The notes beneath the pieces are model-generated. The model did no database searches. It saw only the letters and a program-made list of their open reading frames with translations, and was not told where the DNA came from. DNA of 64,000 bases, from assembly GCF_057098645.1 (NCBI RefSeq), contig NZ_CM169472.1; one strand, 5' to 3'. Positions 10,042-11,499 of the stretch are shown piece by piece. The translations under genes and the position numbers were made by a program. Position 1 is the first letter of the stretch; every line of letters begins with the position of its first letter.

Positions 10042-10601
10042 CCGTTGCCCTCATTATCATTATTCACCACCAGGCGGGGTGGTGGTGGCACCGCAAAACG
10101 GTTAGCCGCTTTTTTCGCCGCGTCACCTTTTGCCGATTTTTTACCGGCATCCCCTTTTTTATGGTGCGTGAACTGCGCCAGCTTATAAGCCGCATCCAGC
10201 GCCAGCCTGGGGTCGGTATTAATGTTCTCCACCAGAAGACGCCCCATCGCTTTCACCGGATCGGGAAGACCATCCTCCATATATTCAATACCAGGAGACA
10301 TCACCGCGGACGGTGGCATCTCCGGATTGTTTTCGTCCGGCTGTGGTATTGCAGCCGCCTCACGGCGACGGGGTTTATCCTCCTGCTCTGATTTTTTCTG
10401 CCGGTAAACAGGAACCTCATCCACCTCCACCGTCTCGCATTGTTTACGGGCTATAAACGCAAGCACCTCCGGATCTTTTGCCAGCTGCGAGCCTTTAACC
10501 CTGGCGGTCTTCGCCGAATAACCAGCGGCAATGGCTGACGCTGTTTTGTTTTTCCCGGACATGAGCGCCAGCGCAAATTTTCGTTTTTGCGTTGTCAGCA
10601 C
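10038..10601 (-). CDS. Terminase small subunit
   Basis: 187-aa protein upstream of and coupled to terL; basic C-terminal half. Confidence 0.7.
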   Translation of the reverse strand: MLTTQKRKFALALMSGKNKTASAIAAGYSAKTARVKGSQLAKDPEVLAFIARKQCETVEVDEVPVYRQKKSEQEDKPRRREAAAIPQPDENNPEMPPSAVMSPGIEYMEDGLPDPVKAMGRLLVENINTDPRLALDAAYKLAQFTHHKKGDAGKKSAKGDAAKKAANRFAVPPPPRLVVNNDNEGNG

Positions 10602-10639
10602 AGCCTCCTCCCGGGTCCAGAACGCACTCAGCCGGGTAT

Positions 10640-10890
10640 GGTTCAGCCCATTTTTCCCGGCGTCTCATGCCGCAAATGTTAACTGCTGCCTGGTTAACAT
10701 TTGCTGAAAAAGCCAGTTAACATTTTTTCCGCACAACAAACTGAATAATAAAGATAAAAACCGCAAAAATGCCCGGACAGCCAGTTAACATGTTAACTGC
10801 CCTGAAACGGGAATTTTTTCTCTGCGTGAGAGGGGGCGCGGTGTCCGGGGCGATCGTTTTTTTCGCCGGATGATCCCCCCCCCGGGGCGG
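10640..10890. promoter_or_regulatory. Putative cos / terminase recognition region
   Basis: Between the HNH and terS genes: repeated GTTAAC-containing inverted repeats (aaatgttaactgctgcctggttaacattt; gccagttaacatgttaactgcc) and a C9/G run. Confidence 0.4.
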
Positions 10891-10891
10891 G

Positions 10892-11257
10892 TCACAGTCC
10901 GATGATATCGTCTGCCCTGCCATGACCTCCGGACACCTCCGGCAGCGTCGGGTCCGGCATACCACTCGCCGTTTCACTGACTGACTTCTGGCGATGGCAT
11001 TCGGTACAGAGCGTCCAGAGATTCGTCTCCTCATTACCACCACCGAACTGAAGTGCAATGCGGTGATCGAGTTCACTGTCACAAAGGTCAACCACACGCC
11101 CACAGAGACAGCACTGTCCGGCATCCCTCAGCCAGATACGACGCTTGAGGGAAACCCGGGCACTGCCACTGACCCGACGCTGTTCACCCTTCAGGACATT
11201 CACCCGCCGGGTATTCAGAGTTTTGATTCTGCTCTGGAGTGTACGAAGCTCAGCCAT
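10892..11257 (-). CDS. HNH endonuclease (terminase-associated)
   Basis: Motifs CCLCGRVVDLCDSELDHRIALQFGGGNEETNLWTLCTECHRQK; sits immediately upstream of terS as in HK97-type cos phages. Confidence 0.8.
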   Translation of the reverse strand: MAELRTLQSRIKTLNTRRVNVLKGEQRRVSGSARVSLKRRIWLRDAGQCCLCGRVVDLCDSELDHRIALQFGGGNEETNLWTLCTECHRQKSVSETASGMPDPTLPEVSGGHGRADDIIGL

Positions 11258-11298: not shown

Positions 11299-11499
11299 AT
11301 GTCATCGAAAAACCGGACCCGCAGAACCACAACCCGCAATATCCGTTTCCCCAATCACATAATTGAACAGATCAACATCGCCCTTGAGCATAAAGGGTCC
11401 GGTAACTTTTCAGCGTGGGTTATTGAAGCCTGCAGGAGAAGGCTGGCAACAGATGCAACGCATCTGCGCCCGGCCAGCATGACAAATAACGAGAAATGA
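11299..11499 (+). CDS. YlcI/YnfO-family small protein
   Basis: 66 aa, MSSKNRTRRTTTRNIRFPNHIIEQINIALEHKGSGNFSAWVIEACRRRL; recalled as a prophage small-protein family. Confidence 0.5.
   Translation: MSSKNRTRRTTTRNIRFPNHIIEQINIALEHKGSGNFSAWVIEACRRRLATDATHLRPASMTNNEK

Follow-up and report, generated by a model that had tools for sequence, protein, structure and literature searches.

A putative cos site with a TerS-matched repeat array in an HNH-assisted, HK97-type packaging module of Escherichia coli Stx-type prophages

The gap between the HNH endonuclease gene and terS of an E. coli Stx-type prophage (positions 10602-10891 of the 64-kb stretch of DNA analysed here, the window) probably forms the cos of an HNH-assisted packaging module of the HK97 type, made up of a cutting core, a recognition array and the start of terS; we put the probability of this reading at roughly three in four. 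An initial annotation of the window had proposed a cos/terminase recognition region in this gap, by reference to HK97-type phages, and the HK97-type TerL, the adjacent HNH gene and the genome ends of the Stx1 phage Lys8385Vzw all support that proposal. Across relatives, the repeat word of the array changes at all sites together (GTTAAC, GTTTAY, ATGTACAT or GTTACAY), and each switch accompanies substitutions at or beside the recognition helix of the SF6-like helix-turn-helix (HTH) domain of TerS.

Genomic context and distribution of the gap

The gap (290 bp) is non-coding, as first annotated, and the genes on either side lie on the minus strand. The order on this strand is HNH, gap, terS, terL and a prohead protease/capsid fusion, with lysis genes and a KilA-N gene upstream of HNH; these are the late genes of a lambdoid prophage. 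The genes of the module are the following.

10892-11257, minus strand: HNH endonuclease gene, 121 aa, the final gene before the putative cos (PF01844, E 2e-6)
10038-10601, minus strand: terS, 187 aa, start at +230 from the cut (Pfam Terminase_2, E 1.5e-8, residues 2-57)
8380-10041, minus strand: terL, 553 aa, HK97-type large terminase (Pfam TerL_ATPase and TerL_nuclease)
6379-8316, minus strand: prohead protease/capsid fusion (Peptidase_S78 and Phage_capsid)

In BLASTP comparisons, TerL aligned over its full length (~490 aa) with HK97 gp2 at 23% identity (E 4e-11); identity to the TerL of phage D3 was 21% (E 3e-12) and to that of Xanthomonas phage CP1 50%. The HNH protein is 34% identical to the HNH protein of D3, which is encoded at the right end of the D3 genome. 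The location of an HNH gene directly upstream of cos and the terminase genes is a general rule (PMC3592412).

Together with its flanks, the gap is 96-100% identical to about 93 records of Stx1a, Stx2a and Stx2c phages, including BP-4795, 1717, 2851 and YYZ-2008. A survey of 5426 complete E. coli genomes located it at 2994 places in 1276 of them, with up to seven copies per genome. In the two phage records inspected and in the RefSeq genome rows listed, no feature is annotated under the gap, neither a cos nor the repeats. The phage records examined are prophage-derived, so that the region is internal to them, with the exception of Lys8385Vzw, which was found via the literature. Upstream of HNH and divergent from it lies a DUF3950 gene of 66 aa (11299-11499, plus strand), whose product is, judged by eye, possibly ribbon-helix-helix-like; the gene is present in most but not all relatives, and L091 lacks it.

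Putative position of the genome ends

Lys8385Vzw has been assigned by PhageTerm to the 3' cos class, with the 10-nt cohesive end CGCCCCCCCT (PMC7946995). Its record (MT225100) contains the same HNH-terS-terL module and is 100% identical to the window over +1..+271 (signed positions are counted from the cut). The record finishes with ...GACACCGCCCCCCCT and opens with CTCACGCAGAG..., both collinear with the window; in a longer view, its end ...GGACACCGCCCCCCCT and its start CTCACGCAGAGAAAAAATTCCCGTTTCAGGGCAGTTAACATG... face ...GGACACCGCGCCCCCT, the cut and CTCACGCAGAGAAAAAATTCCCGTTTCAGGGCAGTTAACATG... on the minus strand of the window. Given this base-for-base alignment of the record ends, the homologous cohesive end maps to 10831-10840 in the window, an assignment that goes back to a single published PhageTerm result with garbled coordinates and to a record labelled circular.

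10831-10840, minus strand: putative 10-nt 3' cohesive end CGCGCCCCCT, by homology to the ends of the Lys8385Vzw record

The cohesive end of the window differs from that of Lys8385Vzw by one substitution. Judging from the alignment, the nicks would fall between 10831 and 10830 on the minus strand and between 10840 and 10841 on the plus strand. More distant phages support this position independently. The right end of the D3 record, ...GGACACCGCGCCCCC, is the same 15-mer as found in the window (GGACAC...CGCGCCCCC), and the left end of the CP1 record, CTCAGCGAGAGAAAAAAT (CTCAGCGAGAGAAAAAATACCCC), aligns at +1. In both of these phages, whose genome ends we take to have been determined experimentally, the HNH gene is at the right end of the record and terS at the left.

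The ends of Lys8385Vzw within the gap support the cos/terminase recognition region that the initial annotation had placed on the GTTAAC repeats and a C/G run, with the qualification that the cut at 10831-10840 falls outside the repeats and outside the C/G run. They also bear on the possibility that packaging is headful and the region a pac site or irrelevant. A TerS of the Terminase_2/SF6 type is indeed best known from pac phages, but the TerL is of the HK97 type with an HNH gene adjacent, the near-identical Lys8385Vzw is classed as 3' cos, and the records of relatives with TerL proteins 21-50% identical have fixed ends at homologous sequence. We consider headful packaging extremely improbable; for Lys8385Vzw, which is 97-100% identical, both headful packaging and ends lying elsewhere are answered, and for the window they would be answered by proxy.

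Two observations concern the ends of other members of the family. An IMG/VR contig from an isolate genome (L076) starts at TCTCACGCAG, 1 nt from the putative left end, and may represent linear phage DNA in the sequenced culture. Furthermore, two positions of the cohesive end (10837 and 10832) are polymorphic among otherwise near-identical prophages, and co-resident prophages may thus have non-identical sticky ends.

A conserved, putative cutting core with an upstream G-run

The putative cutting core comprises about 78 bp (10806-10883), in which a run of nine G is followed by 44 nt, the staggered cut and the block CTCACGCAGAGAAAAAATTCCCGTT. Besides the cohesive end, it consists of three elements.

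10875-10883, minus strand: G9 run (C9 on the plus strand), putative upstream element of cos, separated from the cut by 44 nt
10841-10874, minus strand: segment between G-run and cohesive end, ATCATCCGGCGAAAAAAACGATCGCCCCGGACAC, conserved in alignments
10806-10830, minus strand: conserved +1..+25 block CTCACGCAGAGAAAAAATTCCCGTT, with an A6 tract at +12..+17

On the plus strand, C9 is followed by GGGGCGGG (10884-10891), which abuts the HNH stop codon (10892-10894); on the coding strand, CCCGCCCC directly precedes G9. The long C/G run that the initial annotation had pointed out between HNH and terS consists of the C9 at 10875-10883 and the GGGGCGGG that follows. C9 is the only G/C homopolymer of at least 8 nt in the window, which by itself is within chance; what makes it significant is its recurrence in other phages. 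In the HK97 record, G9 is followed by 42 nt to the genome end, CP1 has GGGGAGGGGTGG and then 42 nt to the end, and D3 has the G-rich GGGGTGGGGCGGG followed by about 40 nt. A G-run was also present in Vibrio, Stenotrophomonas and Pseudomonas relatives found by TerL homology, and Vibrio Vaitephage and Stenotrophomonas P11 have it with the same geometry. Among 66 unique loci fetched by TerS homology alone, a run of at least six G was located 42-46 nt upstream of the core in 65, and the sole exception was a copy with ISEc20 inserted in the G-run. The homology of the window with the satellite-like islands described below and with the diverged phage locus L097 starts at the G-run, and the +1..+25 block is kept in all TerS classes, the islands, CP1, the Vibrio phage and at least 120 IMG/VR stretches.

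The length of the G-run is polymorphic, from G7 to G11, among otherwise near-identical prophages (L008-L087). The inserted ISEc20, an IS110-family element, was seen in O157 PPompW prophages (L022 2150-2260; H93-H99) at the equivalent of 10879-10880, where it leaves G5; if the G-run is needed, these prophages would be uncuttable at cos.

A scan of IMG/VR for G7-N38-48-CTCAYGCAGAGA returned at least 120 stretches. Of these, 80 were fetched, and many come from environmental phages whose TerS is of an unrelated type and whose terS starts 22-72 nt after the cut. Several of these (L148, L133, L138, L106/L111/L123) have private short repeats between the A/T tract and terS, within the first 70 nt after the cut, such as two copies and one inverted copy of GGTGCAAAC or three copies of CTGGAAAC. 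A core combined with private TerS words may be a general layout, and the core itself (G-run, about 44 nt, cut, and CTCAYGCAGAGA with an A/T tract) may be common to HK97, D3, marine and soil phages. From these comparisons, the C/G run appears to be part of a conserved cutting core, at the position of lambda cosQ.

Anatomy of the repeat array

Between the core and terS, GTTAAC occurs five times, at 10678, 10693, 10716, 10784 and 10792, and the inverted repeats centred on it, noted in the initial annotation, comprise a perfect 12-nt repeat and an 18-bp palindrome. The elements of the array, in order from the cut, are as follows.

10782-10799, both strands (+32..+49): perfect 18-bp palindrome CAGTTAACATGTTAACTG, formed by units A (inverted) and B, two overlapping inverted copies of ATGTTAACTG
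10727-10781, minus strand: A/T-rich spacer of 55 bp with T5 tracts and TTATTCA at 10742-10748
10714-10723, minus strand (+108..+117): unit C, ATGTTAACTG
10672-10704, both strands: perfect 12-nt inverted repeat holding units D and E (arms 10672-10683 and 10693-10704, 9-nt gap)
10691-10700, minus strand: unit D, ATGTTAACCA
10676-10685, plus strand: unit E (inverted), ATGTTAACTG

The units span +32..+155 (GTTAAC cores +34..+153), with C, D and E clustered at +108..+155. The hexamer is enriched in the window as a whole, with 26 copies compared to 11.8 +/- 3.1 in shuffled sequences; at this background rate about 0.04 copies would be expected in 120 bp, and a Poisson estimate of the chance of finding five is about 1e-9. 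All five sites are copies of one asymmetric 10-mer, ATGTTAACYR, of which the window contains six copies against 0.35 expected, five of them within the 124 bp of 10676-10799. The sixth, ATGTTAACTG at 36646-36655, falls within the coding sequence of an Ead/Ea22-like ORF (36483-37169) in the early region and was taken as chance. A 24-codon ORF starting at the ATG of the palindrome (MLTGCPGIF...) was also dismissed, being unconserved and interrupted by a stop after five codons in L096.

The T5/A6 tracts of the spacer are found at +62, +71 and +103, and its TTATTCA is kept in alignments of diverged loci; the spacer is probably bent. The best matches in the gap to the IHF consensus WATCAANNNNTTR have two mismatches and occur at background frequency. 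Conservation within the E. coli family is uninformative on the repeats, as the whole of +1..+230 is almost invariant there; the 3' end of HNH and the stretch from HNH to the cut vary more.

The inverted repeats could in principle act as RNA or DNA hairpins, in mRNA stability, termination or cruciform formation, and not as protein sites. A perfect 12-bp stem with a 9-nt loop does appear in both the minimum free energy and the centroid fold, but the fold of the gap has a z-score of only -1.35, 17 of 200 shuffled sequences fold as well, the stem is not followed by a U-tract, and a comparison with Rfam gave no match. Moreover, a hairpin requires pairing alone and no common word, whereas one 10-mer recurs here in separate hairpins and in the unpaired unit C.

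Co-variation of the repeat word with the TerS helix-turn-helix domain

Diverged relatives allowed us to follow the repeats beyond the nearly invariant E. coli family. In L096 and L097, whose TerS proteins are 86% and 67% identical to that of the window, every GTTAAC is kept and a sixth is added in each, even though the spacers have diverged. In L090/L091 and L098 (TerS 76% and 68% identical), all sites have changed to GTTTAY/RTAAAC: unit C has become ATGTTTATAC, and the inverted-repeat arms with D and E read GTTTAC/GTAAAC in these class-2 loci. In L286 the layout is unchanged and the units are ATGTACAT, with CTATGTACATGTACATAG as the palindrome where the window has its own; relatives whose TerS has another helix-3 signature show TATAAACATGTTTATA, CTATGTACATGTACATAG or GTAAACATGTTAACAG at this place. 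Motif and helix-3 signature correspond one to one in every unique upstream sequence tabulated.

Signature xKTAR[VI]KGS, 105 unique upstream sequences: GTTAAC, five to six copies in 103 and fewer in 2
Signature EKSARCKGS, 1 unique upstream sequence (L090; L091 has the same repeats): GTTTAY, five copies
Signature EKSARNKGS, 1 unique upstream sequence (L286): ATGTACAT
Signature xKTARVKGW, 7 unique upstream sequences (satellite-like islands): GTTACAY, two to six copies

One of the two sequences with fewer GTTAAC copies is a contig that starts inside the array, and L098 (AKSARCKGS, GTTTAY units) stands outside the table as its upstream sequence is too short. In evolutionary terms, the switches may amount to no more than four or five events.

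The concerted change also bears on hairpins. In L090 the changes in the arms preserve complementarity, as pairing would demand, but separate hairpins and the unpaired unit C all switch to the same new motif, and the units of the satellite-like islands are mostly direct repeats. We therefore regard hairpins as a very unlikely explanation of the array.

The AlphaFold (AF2) model of TerS contains helices at residues 19-25 and 33-41, with a pLDDT of 92-96 for residues 1-55 and low confidence in the monomer beyond residue 55. The top Foldseek match of the N-terminal domain was the DNA-binding domain of SF6 TerS (4zc3, TM 0.84, rmsd 1.6 A, 30% identity), and further matches were HTH domains of the LuxR/GerE type. 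Three TerS residues, 25, 32 and 35, all inside the HTH, distinguish the GTTAAC from the GTTTAY class; in the model, residue 32 directly precedes helix 33-41, and residues 35 and 38 are predicted to lie on it. In TerL, none of 127 variable columns contains a residue diagnostic of this split. HNH has 10 lineage-specific residues in the GTTTAY class, which is a single lineage, so that the class-2 comparison by itself leaves room for HNH as the reader; HNH is disfavoured in this role, as the islands bear their own repeats and their own TerS, and neither an HNH nor a TerL gene was called in their fetched flanks.

It is this co-variation of motif and helix 3 on which we assign the GTTAAC units to TerS, whose N-terminal HTH appears, from the sequence comparisons, to be the reader of the repeats. 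A simple residue code may relate residue 35 (V, C or N, with T or S at 32) and residue 38 (S or W) to GTTAAC, GTTTAY, GTACAT and GTTACAY. The initial annotation grouped two things that come apart: the GTTAAC units would be TerS recognition sites downstream of the cut, and the G-run is a separate element upstream of it, 44 nt away.

Satellite-like islands and relatives with a single palindrome

The TerS homologues of the fourth class, 46-49% identical to the TerS of the window, are encoded in small E. coli islands that lack terL and contain AlpA, a D5_N/AAA_25 primase and a capsid-like ORF. The islands (L099 1650-2040; L094/L095 2380-2500; L279-L284) adjoin an AIDA-type autotransporter gene. 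Upstream of their terS, the phage cutting core is almost intact, from the G-run to GGACACCGCGCCCCCT, the cut and CTCATGCAGAGAAAAAA, and is followed by a private repeat, (A)AAAGTTACAC, in up to seven copies. The island TerS has a diverged HTH, while its last ~70 residues share about 90% identity with TerS from L097-type phages (in L099 and L094); the core of the L099 island also matches the L097-type phage core. The islands look like satellites that redirect the packaging of the phage family of the window. As they combine the phage core with their own repeats and their own TerS HTH, the two parts of cos are separable: from these sequences, the core would go with TerL and HNH, which the islands must borrow, and the repeats with the DNA-binding domain of TerS. 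Experiments on phage-inducible chromosomal islands (PICIs) of lambda and phi80, e.g. EcCICFT073, have shown that cosQ and cosN are kept and cosB is changed (PMC6739421).

Relatives of the Klebsiella/Enterobacter type (signature EKSARSKGS) have a simpler arrangement, in which terS starts 39 nt after the cut and there is a single imperfect palindrome, GTAAACATGTTAACAG. In these loci (L109, L134, L285-L305, ~1460-1515), the terS ATG lies inside the palindrome position (GGAGGGTRTAAACATGTTAACAG). Their terS Leu codon TTA is invariant across diverged loci, which suggests a constraint at the DNA level, possibly TerS autoregulation. Since one palindrome is all that these relatives have, the long array is not obligatory and represents a family-specific elaboration; the comparison suggests that the E. 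coli repeats were derived from a terS-start site of the Klebsiella/Enterobacter type.

Such an origin raises the question of whether the array is a functionless relic, made of duplicated copies of the 5' end of an ancestral terS (ATG TTA ACx, Met-Leu-Thr) that an insertion between the cut and terS left behind. It is true that ATGTTAAC forms the first terS codons of the Klebsiella-type relatives, at the position of the E. coli palindrome, and that an additional ~190 bp are present in the E. coli family. A relic should decay, yet the units persist in L096 and L097 despite diverged spacers, and they have been replaced in concert by words matching TerS substitutions; duplication may explain the origin of the array, not its maintenance. 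A relic is in our view quite unlikely.

The same relatives bear on a role of the GTTAAC units as transcription-factor operators with no part in packaging, bound either by the DUF3950 protein or by TerS acting as autoregulator of the terS or late message. In favour of operators, the units form palindromes or inverted pairs, the single palindrome of the Klebsiella type overlaps the terS start codon, where an invariant TTA suits autoregulation, and there is a weak promoter-like match within the repeats, but promoter and terminator scans were at chance level. L091 has no DUF3950 gene yet the same repeats as L090, the satellite-like islands lack DUF3950, HNH and TerL yet have their own repeats by their own TerS together with the shared core, and the array always adjoins a mapped end. 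Autoregulation by TerS would moreover be compatible with packaging recognition, and we judge a purely regulatory role to be unlikely. None of the alternatives accounts for the TerS-matched, concerted word changes together with the hybrid cos of the satellites.

Discussion

If the gap is a cos site, packaging could proceed as follows. TerS oligomers would bind the palindrome and the C-E cluster via their N-terminal HTH domains, and the A/T-rich spacer would bend and join the two groups of units. TerS would thereby position TerL and HNH on the adjacent core, G-run included, and TerL with HNH would make the staggered cut that leaves the 10-nt 3' ends CGCGCCCCCT. Packaging would then start from the terS side, rightwards into terS, and stop at the next cos. 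In HK97, cleavage of cos by TerL is stimulated by the HNH protein gp74, and TerS, whose binding site lies 15-29 bp downstream of the cut, stalls the motor when bound (PMC9410871, PMC11331095).

More broadly, HK97-type cos sites might be modular, with a conserved core read by TerL and HNH and an exchangeable array read by TerS through a residue code, an arrangement that satellites exploit. We put this forward tentatively, at slightly less than even odds. Satellites of E. coli would then carry a helper core, a private array and a chimeric TerS that joins a private DNA-binding domain to the C-terminal half of the helper protein.

About one in four complete E. coli genomes carries the module, and EHEC genomes often have it in several prophages; its cos site therefore decides which Stx and non-Stx prophage DNAs and satellites can be packaged by one another's terminases. 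Several co-resident lambdoid prophages with one cos and TerS specificity could cross-package. On a practical matter, annotators of HK97-type prophages gain in the mapped core a signature for finding 3'-cos sites. The way in which small terminases with an HTH read DNA is still debated (PMC11331095), and the natural specificity classes provide a test set in which the layout is constant, the word differs and one to three residues are changed at or beside the recognition helix.

A cos site is the expected kind of element in an HK97-type module and will not surprise a specialist. Two things are new here, the array whose repeat word co-varies with TerS and the G-run geometry common to several phages; a limited literature search found no prior description of either.

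In its layout the site resembles lambda cos, with an upstream element, a staggered nick site and an array for the small terminase in mixed orientation, split by a bendable A/T-rich spacer. The array likewise lies between cut and terS (~230 bp in the window, ~190 bp in lambda) and holds several copies of the putative TerS word, comparable to R3, I1, R2 and R1 of cosB; in both systems, satellites retain the portion of cos that is cut and exchange the portion that is recognised (EcCICFT073, PMC6739421). The differences are that the window has a putative 10-nt 3' overhang and lambda a 12-nt 5' overhang, that the window has an HNH partner and an SF6-like HTH TerS whereas lambda TerS is the winged-helix gpNu1, and that the window shows no IHF site better than chance and no sequence similarity. 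By analogy, the array would work like a cosB outside the lambda family.

HK97 shares with the window the gene order (gp74 HNH, cos, gp1 TerS, gp2 TerL), the TerL family, a G9 run that precedes the end by 42-44 nt and, as far as the putative features of the window go, the 10-nt 3' end and a TerS site downstream of the cut (PMC11331095); the prohead protease and HK97-fold capsid genes downstream in the window fit the same picture. The small terminases differ: TerS of the window showed no similarity to HK97 gp1 (E 1.2), and HK97 TerS reads a single 15-bp site at +15..+29, with the DNA threaded through the ring, whereas the window has five repeated words at +32..+155, an HTH domain and a terS start at +230 instead of +50. 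With the pac-binding small terminase of SF6 and SPP1 (G1P), TerS of the window shares the N-terminal HTH fold, the Terminase_2 family and, putatively, the recognition of repeated short boxes; those are headful phages without fixed cohesive ends, and the C-terminal parts are unalignable. The module is HK97-like in its TerL, HNH and cos core, and carries a TerS of a different type.
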